Shown piece by piece: positions 5,062 through 31,498 of a DNA stretch of 32,854 nt (within the stretch, counting starts at the first letter, position 1; the number at the start of each line of letters is the position of its first letter). The stretch comes from a virus. Lineage: Duplodnaviria > Heunggongvirae > Uroviricota > Caudoviricetes. The notes under the pieces were generated by a model. That model saw nothing but the letters and a program-made list of their open reading frames with translations, was not told the DNA's origin and made no database searches. The stretch is taken from the IMG/VR virus record IMGVR_UViG_2703718859_000017. One strand, 5' to 3'. The translations under genes were made by a program, and so were the position numbers.

Positions 5062-7121
5062 TATGCAAGCCTCACGATGTAGTTAAATGCGATGTTTTTG
5101 ACGGTGTTTTCCGCATTACCGGTGGGGTTAATGGTCAGGCCGTGGCCATGTTGACCCAGTGCGAGCGTGTGGATGTGTTCGCCAATGCTTACCGAATGTG
5201 TGTGTTCCGAAACTCTGGCGATCAGGTTCGCCCCGGAGCCCGGCCCGTATGCGGTCCAGTCACTGCTGCCTTCCGGTGACGCGGTGGCGGTTCTTAATGA
5301 TATTGTTGCGCTGAACGGCCCCGCGCTGTTTGTTGTTTTTGTGCCGTAATTGAAGGATGAGGTCGTTTTTGTGCCAAGGTCAGTATTTGAGACGCTCCCT
5401 CCGTGGGTGTGCGATTTGATGCCGTCCTGCTCCTGTGACAATACCGCACGACCGCTGGCAGGTTTTCCCTTGATTGTCCAGCCACGCATATCCGGGATAC
5501 GACCATCCGGATAGGCTTTTGCCAGCAGGGGATATCGTGCTTTATCGAATGTCTGCCCCACCATGATGGCGTAACCGGCAGGTGGGGTGTCTGACGGCCA
5601 CGGCAGGGGAACGCCTGCGGGTAACAACTCACTTGCAGGCAGTGCGCCGATGTCCTGTGGTGTGGGTTTGTTTTTGTCCGTGTAAGTGCGGTACCAGATG
5701 GTGCTTTTCCCTTTATTTAAAACAACCCCGGTGAACTGTGTGCGGAGGTACATGTCGGCAGGGTTTGGGCTTTCGAGACCTGTCGTGATCCTGATGATCC
5801 CCCCGTTGATGTCGCCTGATACTTCGATAAGGCAGCCTCCAAGGCAGATATCACCATAGCCCGTATCAGTGAGCACGCTGTGCCGGGAAAGTGAAATATT
5901 GGCTTTGAATATCCAGAGTCCTGGTCTGAAGGCGCCACGTTCATTCAGCCATTCCACGAATTGTTCTGTTGTCCAGCGTTGCCCTGCTTCACCCACGTAC
6001 CCGTCTTTTGCATAAACGCGTGGTGCGCCCACGTTGATCAGGAACAGCTCCTTGTTGGGGATGTCCTCACCATTGCGGTTTTTCGCAAGCCGACCATCGG
6101 CGTTGTCCATGGCGATCTTTATAGCCTTTGGCGTGGCTGCCTGTGTCTCTGATGTACTGGTGGTGGCGCTGCTTAACTGTGTGAAGCCCTTTTCTTTCAG
6201 CGTTGCGTCCGGGTGGTTGCGTGATTTCTCGTGTTTTTTCAGAGCGTCCAGCCAGCGGCGTTCTTCCGGCGTTCCTCTGGGGCGCAGGTCAGTCACGTTG
6301 CCGTCTTCATCAATGTCAGCAAGGGCAAAAAAATATTGCCGGGCGGCCTCCTTCCTGTGTGCTTCCAGCAGGATCTCTTCCGTGGCGGCGGGGTCGGCCA
6401 TGATAATATCGTGCTCCACCGTCCATTCACTGGTGAGCGTACCGGTCCACCATACTGTCAGCCAGATACGGGACGGGAAGTCTGGCGTGGTCAGCGGTAT
6501 GTCTTCGGTCAGCTCTGCGCGTAATCCCTCCACGTAACCGGTCCCTTTGCAGAGTGACCATCTTTCGCCTTTTTTAACCAGCCAGCCGTCCCCAAAGAAT
6601 GCAGCGTTACCGTAAATATCGATGTTTTCCCGGCGCTGGCGCTCGTCCATGGCCGCCAGGCGTGCCGTGAAGTCTATCTGCCAGGTCTGCGCCGGGGTGG
6701 TGATACCTGTGGCTTCCTTCGCACCGCTGTACTCCATGAGCATGGAACGGACCAGCACATTACCTTCGTTACCGTTGTGGGTTCTGATTTTTTTCTGTGT
6801 GGGGGCGTGAACAATCATGGCCAGCGTGCTGGTTGCTTTGCTGACCAGTCCCACCCAGTTAAATTCAAAATCACCCAGCTCTGCCCCCAGGGTGACCGAA
6901 TAAACCACGGCATTCTCATTCACCACGCCGGTTTTGCCAACGGCCTGGCGGTGAACAATCTGATCTTCAGGTGGCAGGGTTTCGTCGGGGGATACCGGTG
7001 TTTCCGGGTTGAGGTCCGGGACGTTTGCAAAAACAAACTCATCCAGCACAACGGGGGTGCCTTCCGCCGCCTGCTGTGCCTTGAGCCGGATAAAGGCGCT
7101 GGTAATTACAGATTTCGCCAT
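5061..7121 (-). CDS. H: Tail fiber protein (P2 gpH-like)
   Basis: 686 aa. Contains [34 protein letters not shown], closely matching the remembered conserved P2 gpH region. His-rich HxH C-terminal segment ([25 protein letters not shown]). Confidence 0.8.
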
Positions 7122-20046: not shown

Positions 20047-21873
20047 ATGCGCCGCCATAATGGGCGCATGGCTAAATATTCTGACGAAATCAAAGAGGCG
20101 GCGCGATCGCTTTACCTGAAGCGGTGGCACCCCCGCGATATTGCGGCGGAACTCGGTATTCCGCCGCGCACGGTTTACCACTGGTGTGATGTGGGGCAGT
20201 GGGCTGCCCTGCTGCCCGCTGAATCCGTTGAGGACGTGATCGCCCGGCGTATTGATGTTCTGACCGGACGGGAGGGCAAGACAGAGTGTGAACTTGCCGA
20301 ACTGCGTGAACTTATCGCGCAGCACGTGAAGATCATCGCCCAGAAAAACAAACATGCTGAAAGGATGGCGGAAATTGCCGCCCTGCGTCCGGCAGGGTAT
20401 GAGGACGGCGCGGCTGCGGGGACCTGCGGCGGGGGAGAAGGGAAAAAGCGGCGCTACCGGAAAAACGACGTTTCCGGACTGACTGCTGAAATGCTGGATG
20501 AATGGGCGCGTAAAAATCTTTATGCCTACCAGCTGCACTGCCGCGAGAACCGGCACCGTGAGCGCCGTTTCATCCTCAAGAGCCGCCAGATCGGCATGAC
20601 CTGGTATTTTGCATGGGAGGCGTTCGAAGATGCGGTGGTGACTGGTGATAACCAGATTTTCTTTTCTGCGTCACGGGTACAGGCGGAAATCTTTCGTGAA
20701 TATATTATTAACTTCGCCCTGCAGTTCGGGATCACGCTCACGGGTAAGCATATCCGTCTGAGCAATGGTGCAATGCTGCGTTTCCTGTCCACCAATGCCA
20801 GTACCGCCCAGGGATTTAACGGCCACCTTTACGGCGATGAGGTGTTCTGGATCCCAAAATTCACGCGACTGCATGAAGTGGCCTCGGCAATGGCGACCCA
20901 CGACAAATACCGCACGACGTATTTTTCCACACCCAGCGCCAAAACCCACCAGGCTTATCTGGTCTGGAATGGTGACGACTGGCGCGGGGATGATCCGGCG
21001 CGTCGTGCTGTTGAGTTTCCGAAAGAAAGCGCGATGCGTGTGGGCTGTGAATGCCCTGACGGGATCTGGCGCTACATTATCCGGCTGGAAGAGGCGGTGG
21101 CGGGTGGCCTGTCTGCACGGGTTGATATTGAACGTATCAGGAACCGCTACAACCCGACCACTTACGCGATGCTGTACGGCTGCGAGTTTGTTGACAGCAA
21201 GGATGCGGTATTTAAGTTCTCCGAACTGGTCAGGTGTGAGGTGGAGATGGAGACGTGGGGTGACTACGATCCCACGGCGGCACGTCCGTTCGGCAATCGT
21301 GAGGTGTGGGCGGGCTTTGACCCGTCAAGGTCCGGGGATAATTCCACGTTTGTGATTGTGGCCCCGCCTGTCCATGAGGGCGAGCGGTTCCGTGTGCTCG
21401 CTGTCTGGCAGTGGCAGGGATTTAACTTCACCTGGCAGGCCGATCAGATCCGCGAACTGATGCAGCGCTTTAACATTACCTATATCGGCATAGATATCAC
21501 CGGTATCGGGAAAGGGGTGTTTGATATCGTCAGTCGCTTTGCGCCACGTGAGGCTAACGCCATTCTTTACAGCGTGGAGAGCAAAAACCGCCTGGTGATG
21601 AAAATGATAGACGTGGTGGCCCATAAGCGTATCGAGTGGGCGAAAGACGCCATTGATGAGGCCAGCCGTGAACGCACGGAGATCCCCGCGTCGTTCATGT
21701 CCATACGCCGCACCACCACAAAAAGCGGTAACGCGCTGACGTTCGTGGCGGAACGGTCGGATGTTACGGGGCATGCGGATGTGTTTTTTGCCATTTCGCA
21801 CGCCGTGATTAATGAGCCTGTAGATTATGACTATGAACGCCCGTCCACATGGGCCTTCGGGAAAGCCGCATGA
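20047..21873 (+). CDS. P: Terminase large (ATPase) subunit, P2 gpP-like
   Basis: 608 aa ORF divergent from O and followed by the portal gene with an ATGA overlap. Alternative start at 20068. Confidence 0.85.
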   Translation: MRRHNGRMAKYSDEIKEAARSLYLKRWHPRDIAAELGIPPRTVYHWCDVGQWAALLPAESVEDVIARRIDVLTGREGKTECELAELRELIAQHVKIIAQKNKHAERMAEIAALRPAGYEDGAAAGTCGGGEGKKRRYRKNDVSGLTAEMLDEWARKNLYAYQLHCRENRHRERRFILKSRQIGMTWYFAWEAFEDAVVTGDNQIFFSASRVQAEIFREYIINFALQFGITLTGKHIRLSNGAMLRFLSTNASTAQGFNGHLYGDEVFWIPKFTRLHEVASAMATHDKYRTTYFSTPSAKTHQAYLVWNGDDWRGDDPARRAVEFPKESAMRVGCECPDGIWRYIIRLEEAVAGGLSARVDIERIRNRYNPTTYAMLYGCEFVDSKDAVFKFSELVRCEVEMETWGDYDPTAARPFGNREVWAGFDPSRSGDNSTFVIVAPPVHEGERFRVLAVWQWQGFNFTWQADQIRELMQRFNITYIGIDITGIGKGVFDIVSRFAPREANAILYSVESKNRLVMKMIDVVAHKRIEWAKDAIDEASRERTEIPASFMSIRRTTTKSGNALTFVAERSDVTGHADVFFAISHAVINEPVDYDYERPSTWAFGKAA

Positions 21874-22922
21874 GCAAGAAACGCAGAAACAAAACGTCAC
21901 GCGTGACGAAAAAAGCATTCACGCCCGCACGTGGCAGCACAATCACGTTTGGTCAGCCTGAACCGGTGCTGACCACCGGCACGGACTACCATAACATCTG
22001 GTATGACAACGAACACAACCACTGGCAGCTGCCGATTAACCGCCTGGCACTGGCGCAGCTCCCGAACCTTAACGCCCAGCACGGTGGGGTGCTGTATGCC
22101 CGCCGTAACATGGTGGCGGGGGGCTATACCGGTGGTGGCCTCACAACGGACCAGATGGAACAGGCGGTATTTGACTACCTGTTGTTCGGCGATCTCGCCC
22201 TGCTCAAGGTGCGTAACGTATTCGGCGACGTCGTGGCACTTGAGCCGCTTCCGTCGCTGTATCTCCGGCGCCGCAAAACCGGTGAGTTCGTGGTGCTTCA
22301 GGAAGGTCCCGCGCTGGTCTATACGCCGGAAGATATTATCTTTCTGCGGATGTATGATCCGCGTCAGCAAATTTACGGGCTGCCGGATTATATCGGTGGC
22401 ATTCACTCGGCGCTGCTGAACAGCGAGGCCAGCCTTTTTCGTCGCCGTTACTACAACAACGGGGCGCATATGGGGTTTTTGCTGTATACGAACGACCCGG
22501 GGATCACCACGGAGATGGAGGATGAGATCCGCGAGAAGGTGGCGGAGTCTAAGGGGCTGGGAAATTTCCGCAATCTGTACATCAACATCCCCAAAGGTTC
22601 GCCGGATGGAGTGAAAATTATTCCGATTGGTGAGGTGAGCGCCAAGGATGAATTTTCAAACATCAAGGGGATCAGCGCCCAGGATGTGTTTACGGCACAC
22701 CGCTTTCCTGCCGGTCTTGCGGGGATCATCCCCACGAACGGAGCCACCATCCCTAACCCGGAAACGACGCGTGAAACGTACCGCAAGGATGAGGTGATAC
22801 CGCTTCAGCGTAAAATCATGAACGCCGTGAACAGCGATCCCGATATACCGGAACACCTTTATCTTTGTTTTGATGTGGAAGCCGGGCATGTGGCGGAAGA
22901 AAAAGCGGTACCGGTCGGGTAA
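21870..22922 (+). CDS. Q: Portal protein, P2 gpQ-like
   Basis: ORF track 21849..22922. ATG at 21870 overlaps the terminase stop. About 350 aa, matching P2 gpQ. Confidence 0.8.
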   Translation: MSKKRRNKTSRVTKKAFTPARGSTITFGQPEPVLTTGTDYHNIWYDNEHNHWQLPINRLALAQLPNLNAQHGGVLYARRNMVAGGYTGGGLTTDQMEQAVFDYLLFGDLALLKVRNVFGDVVALEPLPSLYLRRRKTGEFVVLQEGPALVYTPEDIIFLRMYDPRQQIYGLPDYIGGIHSALLNSEASLFRRRYYNNGAHMGFLLYTNDPGITTEMEDEIREKVAESKGLGNFRNLYINIPKGSPDGVKIIPIGEVSAKDEFSNIKGISAQDVFTAHRFPAGLAGIIPTNGATIPNPETTRETYRKDEVIPLQRKIMNAVNSDPDIPEHLYLCFDVEAGHVAEEKAVPVG

Positions 22923-22959
22923 AATGTCCTCCCCTGGGTACGTGTTATCGGGAGGTAAG

Positions 22960-23223
22960 ATGCGGATTTTTAAAGCCCGGTGTCCTGACTGTGGCGCACC
23001 TGCTGTCATCCGGAAGACAGACTGGAAAACCCCTGAACTTGCGGATCTGTACTGTGCATGCAGTGATGTCGAATGCGGGCATACCTTCGTCTGTACGATG
23101 ACCTTTTCCCATACCCTCAGCCCCGGCGCCCGCTCCGGTCGCAATATGGTGAAGTTTCTTGTTGATGCCATGCGCCCGGAAGATCGCCGGTATGCACTTG
23201 AACTTCTGTCGCGGCGTTCCTGA
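22960..23223 (+). CDS. ogr: Ogr/Delta-family zinc-finger late transcription activator
   Basis: 87 aa from ATG 22960 (GGAGG SD at 22951-22955). Cys pattern C-X2-C-X22-C-X4-C (CPDC ... CSDVEC) matches the Ogr zinc finger. Confidence 0.75.
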   Translation: MRIFKARCPDCGAPAVIRKTDWKTPELADLYCACSDVECGHTFVCTMTFSHTLSPGARSGRNMVKFLVDAMRPEDRRYALELLSRRS

Positions 23224-23250
23224 CGCGCTTCGCTTGTCTGCTGCTTCGCC

Positions 23251-23273
23251 GGGGCAAAAAGAATTTTTGCCCC
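23251..23273. terminator. Perfect 10-bp stem hairpin GGGGCAAAAA-GAA-TTTTTGCCCC between convergent ogr and accessory ORF; candidate bidirectional terminator
   Basis: Read directly in the 62-bp gap between the ogr stop (23223) and the minus-strand ORF stop (23286). Confidence 0.4.
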
Positions 23274-23285
23274 GACTCACCAGCT

Positions 23286-23849
23286 TCATGAAAAATCTGG
23301 TACTGAATACAGAGGCGTAACCTGAAATCCGTTACACTTCCAGGACTGCGCTATATCTGGTGACTGCGTGATGGCGGGTAACGGGATTCTGTCATTCCAG
23401 GTCACCCATGCCTTTGGCTCAGAGGTCAGAATCATTAACGCAATGCGGTAACTTTGTAGCCTGGCCTCATCATCCTCTGAAAGCCCGAACGGGATATCTG
23501 ATTTTACCTCATCCATCTGTTCGATTTTCTTCCCTAAAAATACCGCGAGGAAGTTTCTGCTCTCCTGGCATAAGGCCATTTCCGGTATTGTGTACAGTGA
23601 TTCAACATGTCGGCCTGCACGGTTCCAGGCTTTCACAGCGACATCGTGTCGTGTAATGTCGAAAGAAAGACTTTCTTTGCCCGGAGTGGGTGATCTCCAT
23701 GCTACCGCCTTTGCGGTAAGTGCCTCCAGTGTAATACGGTGTACGCATAAGCGCATGAGGGTGTCATCGTCAGAAATCTCCTGTGTGTTCATTTTTTCAA
23801 GCTGCTCAATTTCATGGAGGTTATATTTTTTTAGTTGTCTTCTTTTCAT
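23286..23849 (-). CDS. Hypothetical accessory protein (187 aa), AT-rich
   Basis: ORF track 23286..23903. Preferred ATG at 23849 with an AAGGAAA SD. No recognisable motif. Lower GC than neighbouring phage core. Confidence 0.4.
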   Translation of the reverse strand: MKRRQLKKYNLHEIEQLEKMNTQEISDDDTLMRLCVHRITLEALTAKAVAWRSPTPGKESLSFDITRHDVAVKAWNRAGRHVESLYTIPEMALCQESRNFLAVFLGKKIEQMDEVKSDIPFGLSEDDEARLQSYRIALMILTSEPKAWVTWNDRIPLPAITQSPDIAQSWKCNGFQVTPLYSVPDFS

Positions 23850-23865
23850 ATGTTTTTCCTTTCGG

Positions 23866-24030
23866 TCACGAGAGTAACCAGATAACTGCAACGGTTGCCG
23901 CATAAATTCTGGCGATAAAGCCTGCTGTGAAGTGGCGAAACGGGTTTTCCCACGTCAGGAATGCCATTAAAGCAATCCATGCAATGGTAAAAATCAGTGC
24001 GCCCTTAACGGCGATAAACAGTTCGTTCAT
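23866..24030 (-). CDS. Small hydrophobic protein (54 aa, two predicted TM helices)
   Basis: Manual translation MNELFIAVKGALIFTIAWIALMAFLTWENPFRHFTAGFIARIYAATVAVIWLLS; AAGGAGA SD 7 nt upstream. Below the ORF-track size cut-off. Confidence 0.4.
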   Translation of the reverse strand: MNELFIAVKGALIFTIAWIALMAFLTWENPFRHFTAGFIARIYAATVAVIWLLS

Positions 24031-24103
24031 TGTGGTGTTCTCCTTTGTGTGTCGGGCGAATGAATTGCGTTGCGGTGAAAAAATCGGGCGCGTCAGTGCG
24101 GCC

Positions 24104-24259
24104 TTACTGCTGACGGCGTTCCCGGAGTTCGGTCAGTGCTGCAAGTAAATTCTCCCACCACGTTTCTTCCACGACCGGGTTTTGTCGTGAAAGCAGCTGC
24201 TGTGCCGACTCAATCATTTTCGTAAGCTCCCTGTCGCTGATCCTCCTGGTGTCGTTCAT
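24104..24259 (-). CDS. Small hypothetical protein (51 aa from internal ATG)
   Basis: ORF track 24104..24298. ATG at 24259 has a strong AAGGAG SD; the upstream ATG has none. Confidence 0.35.
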   Translation of the reverse strand: MNDTRRISDRELTKMIESAQQLLSRQNPVVEETWWENLLAALTELRERRQQ

Positions 24260-24307
24260 TGTGCGCTCCTTTAGTTGGCTGTTTCTGGTCATGTTCATGG
24301 TCTTTGT

Positions 24308-24712
24308 TTACCTGCGTGATTGTCTGCCAGCGGCTGAATGCACATAGCGGGCAATTGCCGCTTTGCGGTTAATCGTGACCAGTGTTCTGGTGAGTTCTGC
24401 GTTGTGTTTGTGTGCCTGCTCTTCGTGGTACTGCCGCATGATTTTTCCGGCAGGCGTGAGCGGCTCCGGCTCTCCGGGCGGACGGCGCGGACGAACGGCG
24501 ACAAGCCAGCTGCGGTTGGTGCTGTCCGGTCGTCCGTTGAGTATGTCGGTGATGATGGCCGTGGTGGTGCGATCGGGACTGACGACCGTGATTTCCAGCT
24601 CATCGCCCGGTTGTGGTCCCATGGCAATGTTGTTCAGGGTCAGTAAGGGCGTGCGCTGGCGCATCATTTCGTCAAAGCGCTGGCGCTGCATGGCGCAATA
24701 AAAGCGGGTCAT
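24308..24712 (-). CDS. Hypothetical protein (134 aa) translationally coupled to the 3' end of gene A
   Basis: ORF track. Start overlaps the A stop. Occupies the position of P2 orf91. Confidence 0.4.
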   Translation of the reverse strand: MTRFYCAMQRQRFDEMMRQRTPLLTLNNIAMGPQPGDELEITVVSPDRTTTAIITDILNGRPDSTNRSWLVAVRPRRPPGEPEPLTPAGKIMRQYHEEQAHKHNAELTRTLVTINRKAAIARYVHSAAGRQSRR

Positions 24713-27228
24713 TGTGGCGCCTCCGTATTCGGTGCGGGAGTGATATCAATGCGGCGGGTGCTGTCATTCCAGTACGCGGTGCGCCCGTCAGCCAGGCGCA
24801 CGCGGGCACCGTGACGGACGGAAACGACGGCGCTTTCATGCAGCTGCACGCCCAGCGCATCAAGCTCACGGGTGATTTGTGCGGTGATGTGTGGCTCAGC
24901 GGTCAGTGCGACACTCACGCGAACGCCGCCAGCGGGCGCACTGATGCCGCCGTTTTTCACGGTTTCCGTGTCAGGTGGCGGGTTTTTCAGCTGCCTGGTG
25001 AGTTGTTTTCGCTCTGTGGGGGTCAGTGACCTTAACCATTCACCCAAATCACCTTCCGGCAGGGTAAGTCGCTGCTCCCTGCGTCCGTCCGGCTGCCTTT
25101 CTGGCGGGTCGTTTATGGTCAGATTCTGGTCAGGGGGACAGTTATTGCCACGAGTCCAAGGTGCGGCAAAGCCGCACTCAACGTCAAAACCCTCGTCCGT
25201 GCGGTCTTCGTTTTCCGGCTTGCGTCTGACCAGTTTCCAGGTGTCCGGGTGGGTGCATATGGTGTAGCGCTCCCCGAGTGACGGGGCGCGGACGCCGTAA
25301 ATGCGTTGCGGGAATTCGCCGTAGTCGTTGGCCTCTTCGGCAGTTTCGTATGCGGTGCGGACCAGGTACGTGTTGCGGGGAATGAGCACACCACCCTGGC
25401 GGGTGATATAGGTGGCAAAACATCCCACGTCGGCGGCGGCCAGTATGGCGTCAATGTCGTCATGGTCCAGACGCTGCGGGGCAGTCGGGTTACGGGCCAT
25501 CTGCCCGGCAAGGCGGCGGAGTTCGCGCCATACCTGGCGGGGCGGGATACCGAAGAACTGGAACTGGCGGATGCGGTGAAGGGCCGCCCAGCCGATGGCG
25601 TTCTCCACGGTTTCGGCCATGGTTTTGCCTGATTCCTTATCGACGTAAGGTTTGCCGGTTTTCGGGTCATTCCCCATGAAGGCGCTGGCGTCCAGGTTCT
25701 TACCGATATAGGTCGCGATATAGCTTGCCGGTGTGCCTTTTGCCGGGTCGATTTTTTCGCATTTAAAACGCGGGGAGATATCATCACCCAGCTCTGCGCG
25801 GTCCTCCCTGATGGCGGCGTTGCGCATGATTTCAGTGATACGGGCTTCGTTTTCCGGGCTGGTGAATACCAGCATGTGCCAGTGCGGTGTACCGTCGTGG
25901 TGGGGCTCTACTGTGCGCACGCCGTACCAGCCCAGCCCGGCCTTGTTGATGGCCTTGCGGACGGCGGCGAAAAAGCGGTAAACCAGATAATCACTGGCAT
26001 CACGTACCGTTGCCCCGCAGTATTTCGGGTTCAGACTGCCGTCATCGTTCACGCTGTGAAAACGGGAAGGGGCTGTGACGGTGACGAAAAACGCCACGTC
26101 GCCGCGTGCTTCGGCGACCTGCTCCATCCCCCGGACGCAGGCCATCATCTCGTTACGGCGGTTACGCGGATTAGAGAGACCTGCCCAGTAGATATCCTCA
26201 AGGCTGAACCGTTCTCCTTCTTCGTTCTCGATGTCCCAGGCCTTCAGAAAATCGCGGGTGCGCTGGCGTTTTTCGCGCCAGTCCAGTAACGCTTCATGGC
26301 TGATATATATCGATGTCTTACGTGACACCAGACCTGCGGCGCGTAACAGCTCTTCACGCCAGATGTCCCGGAGGTGTCTTAACTGACTGTTCCACCATGT
26401 CGCACAGGAAAGGCGCATGACCGCACCCGGCACCTGTTCCGGGTCGGGGGCGGTGCGGCGGTCGGGCCTGATTTCCAGCGACGGCCAGCAGGGTGGCGTG
26501 ATACCCAGTTTTAACGCCATGTGTGCCAGTGGCTGGTAGGTCAGTAACCAGGTGAACAGGTCATCGTCACCCCTGCCGGTCTTTTCGATGACCTCATCAC
26601 ATGCGCGCTCCAGTGCGGTGGAAAACGCGGTGGCGGTCAGGGTGGCAAGGCGCTGGATTTCGTCACGGCTCAGCTGCGGCAGCATAAGCAGTTCATCCAG
26701 CCGTTCGCGTGCGGCGGTGGCCTTAAAGGCCGGGGTGGCAAAGCGTTCATTCACACGGGCGATACGTTTCAGGCGGGCACGCAGCCCGTGACGAACGAAG
26801 TTATCCGCCGCGTATGCGCTGTTGTTCTTAAGCCCTTCCCGGCGTGCGCTCTCCTGTTTGCGGCTCAGGCGTGCCAGGTCACGGATGAGCGGACCGGCAA
26901 GAAACGGCGGAAGGGCGCGCAGCTCTGCCATGGCTTCAGATACCAGTGTTGGCGGATTCTCGTGTTTGTGCCGCGCCAGTTTTTCCAGCCTGATCCGACG
27001 CTCTTCGTCGTGGTGAAGATGCGAATTAATTCGCTTGCCTTCGTCTGTGTTTGTCAGGAAGTCGACGGTCTCTTCATCCAGTCTTGCATCAATGCGAATG
27101 TCTTCGTTGATGTAGCTCTGAATGGCCTGGCGTAATGCGGTTGGTTGCGCTCTGCCGAACGTTTCAGGATCGATAACCGGTAGCGGGGCGTTCCACGGGT
27201 ACGCCAGCTGTGCATTGTGGTCACTCAT
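24709..27228 (-). CDS. A: Rolling-circle replication initiator (P2 gpA-like HUH endonuclease)
   Basis: ORF track 24709..27237 begins GTG; ATG at 27228 overlaps the upstream ORF stop (ATGA). Contains TPHWHMLVF (HUH motif) and YIATYIGK (active-site tyrosines). About 840 aa. Confidence 0.85.
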   Translation of the reverse strand: MSDHNAQLAYPWNAPLPVIDPETFGRAQPTALRQAIQSYINEDIRIDARLDEETVDFLTNTDEGKRINSHLHHDEERRIRLEKLARHKHENPPTLVSEAMAELRALPPFLAGPLIRDLARLSRKQESARREGLKNNSAYAADNFVRHGLRARLKRIARVNERFATPAFKATAARERLDELLMLPQLSRDEIQRLATLTATAFSTALERACDEVIEKTGRGDDDLFTWLLTYQPLAHMALKLGITPPCWPSLEIRPDRRTAPDPEQVPGAVMRLSCATWWNSQLRHLRDIWREELLRAAGLVSRKTSIYISHEALLDWREKRQRTRDFLKAWDIENEEGERFSLEDIYWAGLSNPRNRRNEMMACVRGMEQVAEARGDVAFFVTVTAPSRFHSVNDDGSLNPKYCGATVRDASDYLVYRFFAAVRKAINKAGLGWYGVRTVEPHHDGTPHWHMLVFTSPENEARITEIMRNAAIREDRAELGDDISPRFKCEKIDPAKGTPASYIATYIGKNLDASAFMGNDPKTGKPYVDKESGKTMAETVENAIGWAALHRIRQFQFFGIPPRQVWRELRRLAGQMARNPTAPQRLDHDDIDAILAAADVGCFATYITRQGGVLIPRNTYLVRTAYETAEEANDYGEFPQRIYGVRAPSLGERYTICTHPDTWKLVRRKPENEDRTDEGFDVECGFAAPWTRGNNCPPDQNLTINDPPERQPDGRREQRLTLPEGDLGEWLRSLTPTERKQLTRQLKNPPPDTETVKNGGISAPAGGVRVSVALTAEPHITAQITRELDALGVQLHESAVVSVRHGARVRLADGRTAYWNDSTRRIDITPAPNTEAPQ

Positions 27229-27641
27229 GCGTCGCACTCCCCGGCAGTCGCCGCCTGAAACGCCGCGCGGTACAGCACGAGAAGGCGCTGGTATTCACCG
27301 ATAAAGTCTTCTGCGGTGTATATGCCTTTCACGGCCACGCTGTGCGTTGTCATTTCCAGCACAAGCGCCATCTCTGACGACGACCAGTTGATGGCGGTGC
27401 TGTCGGTTCCGTTGATGTGAAATAAACCAAAACCATCACCATCACCTTTCACGTCCACGCGGTAACGGTCGTCAACGGTGAAGGAGAAATCCCCGTATGT
27501 GGTGACGCGTCTGGTGGCCTGTTTACAGGCGCGGCGGTAATAGTCGTGCCAGTCGTTCAGGCGGGAAGCCAGCCGGGGATCCACTGCCCACATCCAGTTA
27601 AAAAAGTCCTGAATATCTGAAAGTCCCTTAACGCTCTTCAT
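27225..27641 (-). CDS. Hypothetical protein (138 aa) coupled to the start of A
   Basis: ORF track. Stop overlaps the A start codon. No recognisable motif. Confidence 0.45.
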   Translation of the reverse strand: MKSVKGLSDIQDFFNWMWAVDPRLASRLNDWHDYYRRACKQATRRVTTYGDFSFTVDDRYRVDVKGDGDGFGLFHINGTDSTAINWSSSEMALVLEMTTHSVAVKGIYTAEDFIGEYQRLLVLYRAAFQAATAGECDA

Positions 27642-27709
27642 GAGAACCTCCGGTAACAGACGTGCGGAAGCCTCCCGCGCACGGGTGCGGGATGGCTTCA
27701 GGATGTTGT

Positions 27710-27937
27710 TTAGTGGTGGTGTTGCTGGTTGATAAGGTCCTGCAGTTCTGCCAGGTCATCCGCCAGGTAGCTGAAGACGGCGGCGTAATACCCGGCAGCG
27801 ATACCATCGTTAAGTCGGTGTAATGCGTTTGACTGCATGATGAAGGTGACAGATGCAGCCCGATGGAGTCTGCGGTTGATTTCAGTGCGGATGTGAAGAC
27901 GCTCAGCGCGGGCGCGCTGTTGTTTGCGGTTTGCCAT
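27710..27937 (-). CDS. Small basic hypothetical protein (75 aa)
   Basis: ORF track. ATG 27937 with AAGAGG SD. The SD overlaps the 3' arm of a 9-bp perfect stem in the upstream structured element. Confidence 0.45.
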   Translation of the reverse strand: MANRKQQRARAERLHIRTEINRRLHRAASVTFIMQSNALHRLNDGIAAGYYAAVFSYLADDLAELQDLINQQHHH

Positions 27938-28257
27938 GGTGTTTGGCCTCTTGTAGTAAGTTCTGAAAACTCACCAACCCGAGGTTCCAAGCTCAGGGTG
28001 GCGAGACGTACAGGGTTGGAACTACCGGCTACAAGAGATCCCGGCCCGACCGAAGTCGGCCCCGTACGCCCCGCCATAATTCTGACGCGAAAAAGACGTG
28101 GCGATACAGTACGCACAAAAAAACCGCTGGCGCGGTTGTGCGCTCTTGTAGTCGGCGGGGTTCCAATCCCGGCACCCGTTTTATGAGGTGCGGGAAAACT
28201 GTAACCCGACCAGGCGAACGCTGGCAAGCGGTTTTTTTGTGTGTGCATGATGATCAC
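27938..28257. other. Structured GC-rich intergenic element with nested inverted and direct repeats (CTCTTGTAG at 27948-27956 and 28143-28151, reverse complement at 28029-28037; GGTTCCAA at 27983-27990 and 28159-28166, reverse complement at 28016-28022); candidate cis-regulatory RNA or ncRNA
   Basis: Read directly from the sequence. The only track ORF here (27628..28257, 209 aa) is low-complexity and judged spurious. Confidence 0.4.
28117..28137 (-). terminator. Intrinsic terminator on the minus strand inside the structured element (stem AACCGC/GCGGTT, loop GCCA, then U-run)
   Basis: Minus strand reads aaccgcgccagcggtt followed by ttttt, about 120 nt downstream of the ORF183 stop. Confidence 0.45.
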
Positions 28258-31383: not shown

Positions 31384-31498
31384 CTGATATCCTCCGCCAT
31401 TGGTGCTTTTTCTAATTGGCACTATTTGGAACCACTTAGAACATTTTGTTTGCTGTTCATATGTGGTGTTAATCTACACATATGTAGGAGTTTGTCAA
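31384..31498. promoter_or_regulatory. Lysis-lysogeny switch region between divergent cox and C starts (expected Pe/Pc promoters and C operators)
   Basis: 115-bp AT-rich gap between the divergent cox and C start codons. Repeated CATATGT-like elements visible. By analogy to P2; promoters not mapped. Confidence 0.45.

Follow-up and report, generated by a model that had tools for sequence, protein, structure and literature searches.

The interval between replication gene A and the ogr and portal genes in IMG/VR record IMGVR_UViG_2703718859_000017 (positions 23286 to 24712 of a stretch of 32,854 nucleotides, hereafter the window) has two parts of different character. The two genes next to A, ORF1 and ORF2, are conserved backbone, and the two genes beyond them, ORF3 and ORF4, are ordinary cargo in a known hotspot of P2-like phages. 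We propose with moderate confidence that this interval makes up the 3' end of an early operon extending from the Cox gene to A, in which the backbone is followed by a swappable module of early accessory genes. ORF4 is a tandem duplicate of the N-terminal module of the Ea22/Eae/EaA-type early proteins of lambdoid phages. The cargo most likely encodes early-expressed accessory factors rather than an exclusion system expressed in the lysogen.

The window is an Escherichia coli prophage of the P2 family (Peduoviridae) and is P88-like (Xuanwuvirus); its closest sequenced relatives are P88-like phages, with ~78% nucleotide identity over A, the early region, and int. A preliminary description of this DNA, made without database searches, had recognized four ORFs in the interval, and all four were confirmed with their features, including the coupling of ORF1 to A, the strong Shine-Dalgarno site of ORF2, and the two-helix membrane peptide encoded by ORF3. 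The ORFs lie on the same strand as A and fill the space between A and the hairpin, ogr, and portal:

24709 to 27237, minus strand: replication endonuclease gene A (842 amino acids; PF05840 at 2.9e-107; phrog_91), the upstream anchor of the interval.
24308 to 24712, minus strand: ORF1 (134 amino acids), the ATG of which overlaps the A stop codon as ATGA.
24104 to 24259, minus strand: ORF2 (51 amino acids), with the Shine-Dalgarno sequence AAGGAG 7 nt upstream.
23866 to 24030, minus strand: ORF3 (54 amino acids), with AAAGGAG upstream and two hydrophobic segments.
23286 to 23849, minus strand: ORF4 (187 amino acids), with an MKRR start, the last gene before the cos-like core.
23220 to 23284, minus strand: cos-like core, which contains the hairpin.
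23251 to 23273: hairpin, GGGGCAAAAA-TTC-TTTTTGCCCC (-30.6 kcal/mol, z = -3.9).
22960 to 23223, plus strand: ogr/delta-type zinc-finger late activator gene (87 amino acids; PF04606 at 2.4e-15).
21849 to 22922, plus strand: portal gene.

Two general statements about the interval hold only in part. The lower GC content ascribed to the whole cassette applies to its last two genes, ORF3 and ORF4, which at 46.7% are AT-rich and look foreign, but not to ORF1 (59.5%; A has 59.9% and the whole window 55.9%). Likewise, the four products lack recognizable motifs as far as Pfam, NCBIfam, and PADLOC are concerned, where scans gave nothing significant for any of them, but ORF1 and ORF2 match the PHROGs phrog_14984 (9e-66) and phrog_14672 (2e-29), respectively, and fold and remote-homology searches were informative as well.

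Do the four genes form one unit, as was first supposed? We compared prophages with flanks that are 95 to 98% identical and found four arrangements (L numbers designate related prophage loci):

Variant A, ORF3 and ORF4: the window, L002, and L014.
Variant B, ORF3, the decayed 5' end of ORF4 (63 nt), and an unrelated 72-amino-acid ORF: L003 and L009.
Variant C, a MarR-like gene in place of ORF3 and ORF4: L004 and five other genomes.
Variant D, ORF3 alone: L010.

The breakpoints are sharp and lie at 23786, at 24114, and at 23285/23286, the last of which is common to all replacements. Because ORF1 and ORF2 are kept across the loci while ORF3 and ORF4 vary, we assign the former pair to the backbone and the latter to the cargo. 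The variability expected of acquired cargo is thus a property of ORF3 and ORF4, not of ORF1 and ORF2, and only the last two genes are swappable. Nor is the pairing of a membrane peptide with a cytoplasmic protein obligate: L003 and L010 carry an intact ORF3 but not ORF4, and L013 has an ORF4 homologue but no ORF3. In variant B the ORF4 remnant (90% identity; positions 2368 to 2431 of L003 and 6865 to 6926 of L009) has GTG in place of ATG and its frame decays; the existence of this remnant indicates that ORF4 was replaced by recombination and was not primordially absent. The full arrangement is present in 3 of 5426 complete E. coli genomes, at 98.5 to 98.7% identity.

The location was correctly recognized as a hotspot. 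The A-to-cos region corresponds to the published cos-proximal hotspot of P2-like phages (PMC9122126), and the interval is flanked by A on one side and a cos-like core and portal on the other, which is the location of the gpA-gpQ hotspot (Rousset et al. 2022). Other occupants were seen in loci with an ORF1 homologue. In L019 the same slot (5599 to 6582) holds a 197-amino-acid ORF and a YafO-family toxin gene, and L015 to L017 carry at 6054 to 6680 a 208-amino-acid ORF on the opposite strand beside a coupled Ead_Ea22 gene; neither gave a PADLOC match.

ORF1 is not cargo. Its position and its modeled structure identify it as the equivalent of orf91, which in P2 is translationally coupled to A, and the link between the two is one of fold and position. 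A homologue of ORF1 directly follows A in every locus examined, down to 47% identity in ORF1 and 56% in A, and the homologues form 44 clusters, every one from E. coli. The AlphaFold2 model predicts an ASCH/PUA-like beta-domain with an ASCH-type beta-barrel (residues 1 to 75) and a long C-terminal helix (residues 87 to 133). P2 Orf91, which served as a positive control, matches Pfam DUF3850 and ASCH; ORF1 has no Pfam ASCH or DUF3850 match at E ≤ 1, and the comparison of ORF1 profiles with P2 Orf91 by hhalign was null (probability 0.1%). A search of PDB sequences with an ORF1 alignment profile gave chance matches only, an alignment scan of genome contigs did not find relatives, and tblastn searches of 50,697 phage records with ORF1 and with ORF3 had no match. 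ORF1 differs from known ASCH/PUA-like domains (PDB 3iuw, the E. coli ac4C amidohydrolase YqfB, and the EVE/YTH readers) by its extra 47-residue C-terminal helix.

ORF2, which matches phrog_14672 only, is kept in most loci that bear ORF1, where it is usually coupled to a MarR-like gene and SSB, and it shows 89 to 100% nucleotide identity in 13 related loci. Because the alignment with phrog_14672 begins at the Met of the 51-amino-acid form, this start is better supported than that of a 64-amino-acid ORF.

ORF4 carries the main clue to the nature of the cargo. Its two halves (residues 1 to 92 and 93 to 187) align with each other at E = 3e-9, revealing an internal tandem repeat, and in the AlphaFold2 model the unit of ~90 residues consists of a helical hairpin followed by a beta-beta-alpha-beta element. 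A HMMER search of 1.84 billion representatives with ORF4 found one other full-length cluster, P0004, with 32% identity, which brings proteins of this two-unit type to two 50%-identity clusters in total. The same HMMER/phmmer search returned 21 shorter proteins (E = 7e-12 to 6e-4) aligned over ~75 to 90 residues; these are small proteins from lambdoid phages and carry the unit as their N-terminal module. Residues ~100 to 185 of ORF4, and more weakly residues 1 to 90, are homologous to this module (33 to 47% identity, E down to 7e-12). The tblastn relatives in the phage collection are of the lambdoid type only and are labeled Ea22, Eae, EaA, or DUF551-containing, and the PHROG matches of ORF4 (2e-5 to 4e-4; up to 1e-61 for its relatives) are to PHROGs 660, 60, and 5117, all annotated as unknown function.

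Nothing in this family points to an enzyme. The invariant positions of ORF4 (A137, L138, P145, A147, P179, L180, and Y181, in the pattern AL...P.AW...PLY) are hydrophobic or structural, and conserved catalytic residues were not seen in the family alignment. The model had no informative fold match in the PDB, a Foldseek search against BFVD gave uncharacterized phage proteins only, and no nuclease, NTPase, toxin, or sensor fold was among the structure matches. An alignment scan of viral contigs with ORF4 did not find relatives.

Where do genes of this type reside? P0004 sits in the P2-like prophage L013, the A protein of which is 56% identical to that of the window, and no gene lies between it and the same hairpin, beyond which come ogr and portal. 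P0004 and the ORF1 homologue are translationally coupled, and L013 lacks both ORF2 and ORF3. In phage cdtI the module is the N terminus of orf35, the final gene of the early left operon before xis. In L015 to L017 the partner coupled to the ORF1 homologue is a different protein, of the Ead_Ea22 type, and the early operon of P88 also carries an Ead/Ea22-like gene. These contexts indicate that early operons of lambdoid and P2-like phages alike repeatedly have a gene for an 'ea'-type protein at their distal end.

ORF3 belongs to the variable module and is a lineage-restricted orphan. Its hydropathy profile shows hydrophobic segments at residues ~4 to 26 and ~34 to 54, and only 3 clusters were found among 5.8 billion proteins. 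It is separated from ORF4 by 16 nt; it occurs without ORF4 in the two loci mentioned above and is absent from L004 and L013.

All four genes look real, because changes between variants are mostly synonymous and the AlphaFold2 models of ORF4 (pLDDT 90, pTM 0.82) and ORF1 (pLDDT 86) are confident. The counts of synonymous and nonsynonymous changes are 3/0 and 4/1 for ORF3 and 4/3 for ORF4, and pN/pS for ORF1 is ~0.1 to 0.4. The MKRR start of ORF4 is used by both RefSeq annotators and in P0004. Alternative starts giving 205- and 64-amino-acid products were rejected, as they lack a Shine-Dalgarno sequence and the homologues begin at the shorter forms.

The arrangement of the genes is that of an operon tail. 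Contiguous minus-strand genes lead from a Cox homologue (PF10743, ~31.4 kb) via DUF4761 and helix-turn-helix proteins to A and ORF4, and a 10/12 sigma-70 match is located at 31498 to 31471, upstream of cox. A sigma-70 consensus scan of positions 22800 to 24900 found no match of 9/12 or better, and a relaxed scan gave only 8/12 matches with poor spacing, the sole one upstream of ORF3 overlapping the ORF3 ATG. The 73-nt gap between ORF2 and ORF3 contains no stable structure and no terminator; searches found no LexA box upstream of the ORFs and nothing of the Ogr type (TGT-N12-ACA) in the interval. Because ORF1 to ORF4 are on the strand of A and no promoter was detected, they appear to form the tail of the Cox-to-A early operon. 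A single LexA-box-like sequence with 1 mismatch, CTGGTACTGAATACAG, is present at 23297 to 23312 (plus strand) inside the 3' end of ORF4; the window-wide counts of such sequences are at chance level, and it is probably meaningless.

From this anatomy of backbone, cargo, and gene identities, which the data give directly, we infer when the genes are expressed and what they may do. We hypothesize that ORF1 to ORF4 are transcribed by read-through from A, so that infection or induction would lead to their expression along with the replication genes and they would stay silent in the repressed lysogen. The argument for this timing is consensus based and draws on the shared strand with A, the lack of a detected promoter of their own, and the lack of a terminator before them. 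ORF4 would then be a non-enzymatic, covalent pseudo-dimer of the lambdoid 'ea' module that binds a host or phage partner via its two copies of EPxAW...PLY. It could serve as a dispensable early modulator acting in host take-over, in biasing the lysis-lysogeny decision, as reported for lambda Ea22, or in counter-defense, and ORF3 may be an independent small membrane factor.

Several points weigh against this proposal. Lambda Ea22 has been reported to be pro-lysogenic (PMC7093339, PMC10834534), and ORF4 showed no sequence match to that family: together with 18 relatives it has no match to Pfam Ead_Ea22 (PF13935), its alignment gave only chance matches among PDB sequences and did not recover the C-terminal domain of lambda Ea22 (8DSX), and BLASTP against the Ead_Ea22 protein of L015 was null. 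ORF4 also has no DUF551 (PF04448) match, and DUF551 is found in only 2 of 19 aligned relatives, as a separate C-terminal domain. Because ORF4 is without the domains that define the Ea22 family, the phenotype of lambda Ea22 is not transferable to it. The shared module is functionally uncharacterized in every phage that bears it, and consensus scans would miss weak or non-sigma-70 promoters. Finally, the hotspot is enriched for defense genes: 3 of 8 previously untested systems from the P2 hotspot were protective (PMC9122126), and 15 to 32% of the unknown proteins of the P2 hotspot are predicted to be antiviral (preprint, bioRxiv 10.64898/2026.02.27.708500).

Could ORF3 and ORF4, or the whole cassette, then be a system for anti-phage defense or superinfection exclusion, functionally equivalent to P2 tin/old, as the preliminary description suggested? 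This is possible but unsupported, and we consider it unlikely. Its prior probability is appreciable, given that the locus is a proven hotspot, the published cos-adjacent gpA-gpQ site, for which 1,650 arrangements have been catalogued (PMC9122126). The module is variable and of low GC, a small membrane protein could block DNA entry, and the YafO toxin is among the alternative occupants of the same slot. However, we found no defense signature. PADLOC-DB v2 gave no match at E ≤ 1 for ORF1 to ORF4 and none for the ORF4 homologue of L013 or the alternative cargo of sister prophages; ORF4 has none of the nuclease, NTPase, toxin, or sensor folds, and its relatives reside in the early lytic operons of lambdoid phages and of L013. 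ORF3 and ORF4, moreover, occur independently. The supplements of Rousset et al. do not list the RefSeq accessions of these proteins, and a search of the literature on Ea22-like proteins and defense found nothing relevant. The comparison with P2 tin/old itself holds for the position, which is the same A-to-cos interval, but not for the architecture. The P2 genes tin and old run opposite to A, with mapped old-tin transcript starts near cosR, an arrangement that permits expression in the lysogen, whereas the genes in the window are co-oriented with A and no promoter was detected.

A more speculative reading, to which we give only a small chance, is that ORF4 represents a new class of phage early effector that consists of the duplicated 'ea' module only and acts as a stand-alone binder or decoy, with ORF3 as an independent new membrane effector. 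ORF4 would in this case either inhibit a protein of host immunity or recombination or be an anti-phage factor that lacks a promoter and is switched on only during induction. If true, it would provide the first functional handle on a widespread module of lambdoid exo-xis/ea regions.

It is improbable that ORF4, together with ORF1 and ORF2, is no true cargo but assists replication or packaging in association with A and cos. The position of P0004, which in a diverged phage remains last before cos and coupled to the ORF1 homologue and A, would fit such a role, as would the stop codon of window ORF4, which abuts the cos-like core. But ORF4 is absent or replaced in otherwise intact-looking prophages with flanks more than 95% identical, and this dispensability among near-identical prophages makes a core role unlikely; the two-unit protein is limited to the two clusters mentioned above, and the module is often found in lambdoid phages, whose replication and packaging systems are different. 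There is little, too, to recommend ORF3 and ORF4 as functionless, hitch-hiking remnants of illegitimate recombination beside cos. The full cassette is rare, loss is frequent, and variant B contains a decayed piece of ORF4; yet both frames are intact in the window and have good Shine-Dalgarno sites, synonymous changes outnumber nonsynonymous ones, and ORF4 has a confident two-domain fold conserved at 32% identity, so that the signal of selection and the conserved fold argue against junk. The least probable reading is a toxin-antitoxin or abortive-infection pair in which a membrane-depolarizing peptide is checked by a cytoplasmic protein, because, for all that a small hydrophobic peptide is encoded 16 nt from a soluble protein and a toxin of a toxin-antitoxin system (YafO) lies in the equivalent slot of L019, ORF3 and ORF4 occur independently (ORF3 is intact, with mostly synonymous change, where ORF4 is truncated and replaced in L003 or deleted in L010, and L013 has the ORF4 homologue without ORF3), and the Pfam, NCBIfam, and PADLOC scans gave no match to a toxin-antitoxin family.

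The early accessory module proposed here ends at a fixed landmark. The cassette was first described as ending at a perfect 10-bp hairpin, and this hairpin is indeed present, but it belongs to a conserved cos-like element and is not the terminator of the cassette. The 68 bp at 23218 to 23285 show 92 to 94% identity in P88-like phages, and 1126 of 5426 E. coli genomes contain them. A core of ~62 bp is invariant across five diverged loci (including L013), save for a compensatory A/T swap in the stem. The core pattern turned up in the window and in 12 loci, 13 sequences in all, and in each of them it separates the A side from the portal side. On the minus strand the stem directly precedes GGCGAAGCAGCAGACAAGC (23232 to 23250), a putative cohesive end. 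This mirrors P2 cosR, where the 19-nt cohesive end GGCGAGGCGGGGAAAGCAC comes immediately after a hairpin; the order of hairpin and GGCGA... in the window is the order of hairpin and GGCGAGGC in P2 cos. From this analysis the hairpin is best read as part of cos, and the core is probably the cos site. A hairpin within cos would explain why every cargo replacement ends exactly at 23285/23286. As an intrinsic terminator of ORF4 the hairpin was rejected: it has no U-tract (GGCG or GACT follows the stem on the two strands), a terminator scan made no call, it is conserved with cos, and P0004 in L013 is followed by a canonical terminator of its own, ~100 bp before the hairpin.

On the other side of the core, ogr is oriented toward ORF4, and the core contains the ogr stop codon. 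The ogr gene is directly downstream of portal, on the same strand and before the core; L013 to L018 have the same arrangement, which is absent from P88, L005/L006, L019, and L021 to L023. The P2 record (NC_001895) has no ogr annotated at the portal end, in contrast to the window, which has ogr between portal and cos. In L021 to L023 (7431 to 7961) and L025/L026 (4412 to 4936) the portal side of the core bears an extra gene of 176 or 174 amino acids, with no Pfam or PADLOC match for the one tested. Such genes suggest that cargo has a second slot, across cos from the first, which ogr fills in the window.

The early region contains a further element upstream of A. Gathering-level Rfam matches to the C4 antisense RNA (RF01695; 27994 to 28081, 83 bits) and to isrK (RF01394; 28117 to 28191, 69 bits) were obtained on the minus strand, inside or beside a 209-amino-acid early ORF (27628 to 28257), and around isrK there are a promoter-like site at 28227 to 28198 and a terminator-like site at 28137 to 28122. 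The matches give the region the look of a C4 immunity or antirepressor control module of the P1/P7 type, here in a P2-like early operon.

Uncharacterized cargo is common in such elements: 19% of P2-like elements are without recognizable defense genes at the hotspot (bioRxiv 10.64898/2026.02.27.708500). What our analysis adds is the division into backbone and cargo, the equivalence of ORF1 with orf91 in its predicted ASCH fold, the recognition of ORF4 as a rare tandem duplicate of a widespread, uncharacterized 'ea' module, and the reassignment of the hairpin to cos. The cos-proximal interval between A and Q is an established reservoir of anti-phage genes, yet it should not be read wholesale as a defense cassette; part of it is backbone, with an ASCH-fold protein coupled to A as in P2, and in this prophage the variable part has the build of early lytic accessory genes rather than that of tin/old. 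Characterization of ORF4 would inform on a module common to many lambdoid phages, including Stx phages, and some P2-like phages, and the cos-like core provides a precise landmark that delimits the cargo on both sides of cos in P88-like prophages.

How does the interval compare with known systems? P88 has an A-to-cos interval like that of the window, with the same cos-like core near the portal side. It holds genes for ParM, a partition protein, a zinc-finger protein, and small ORFs, and homologues of ORF1 to ORF4 were not found in it. Unlike the window, P88 has no ogr between portal and cos, and its portal stop codon lies inside the cos-like core, as the ogr stop codon does in the window. The orf91-tin-old region of P2 likewise occupies the interval between A and cos, its distal part being dispensable cargo beside cos; the P2 cargo comprises Old, an ATPase-nuclease, and Tin, whereas that of the window comprises a membrane peptide and what is predicted to be a non-enzymatic repeat protein. 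The lambdoid exo-xis/'ea' proteins (Ea22, the P22-type Eae and EaA, cdtI orf35, and the DUF551-containing proteins) resemble ORF4 in being encoded distally in an early operon and in being mosaic and dispensable. ORF4 differs from them in that it consists of two copies of the module only, without a C-terminal DUF551 or GWNACRAAML-type domain, and in that it resides in a phage of the P2 family.

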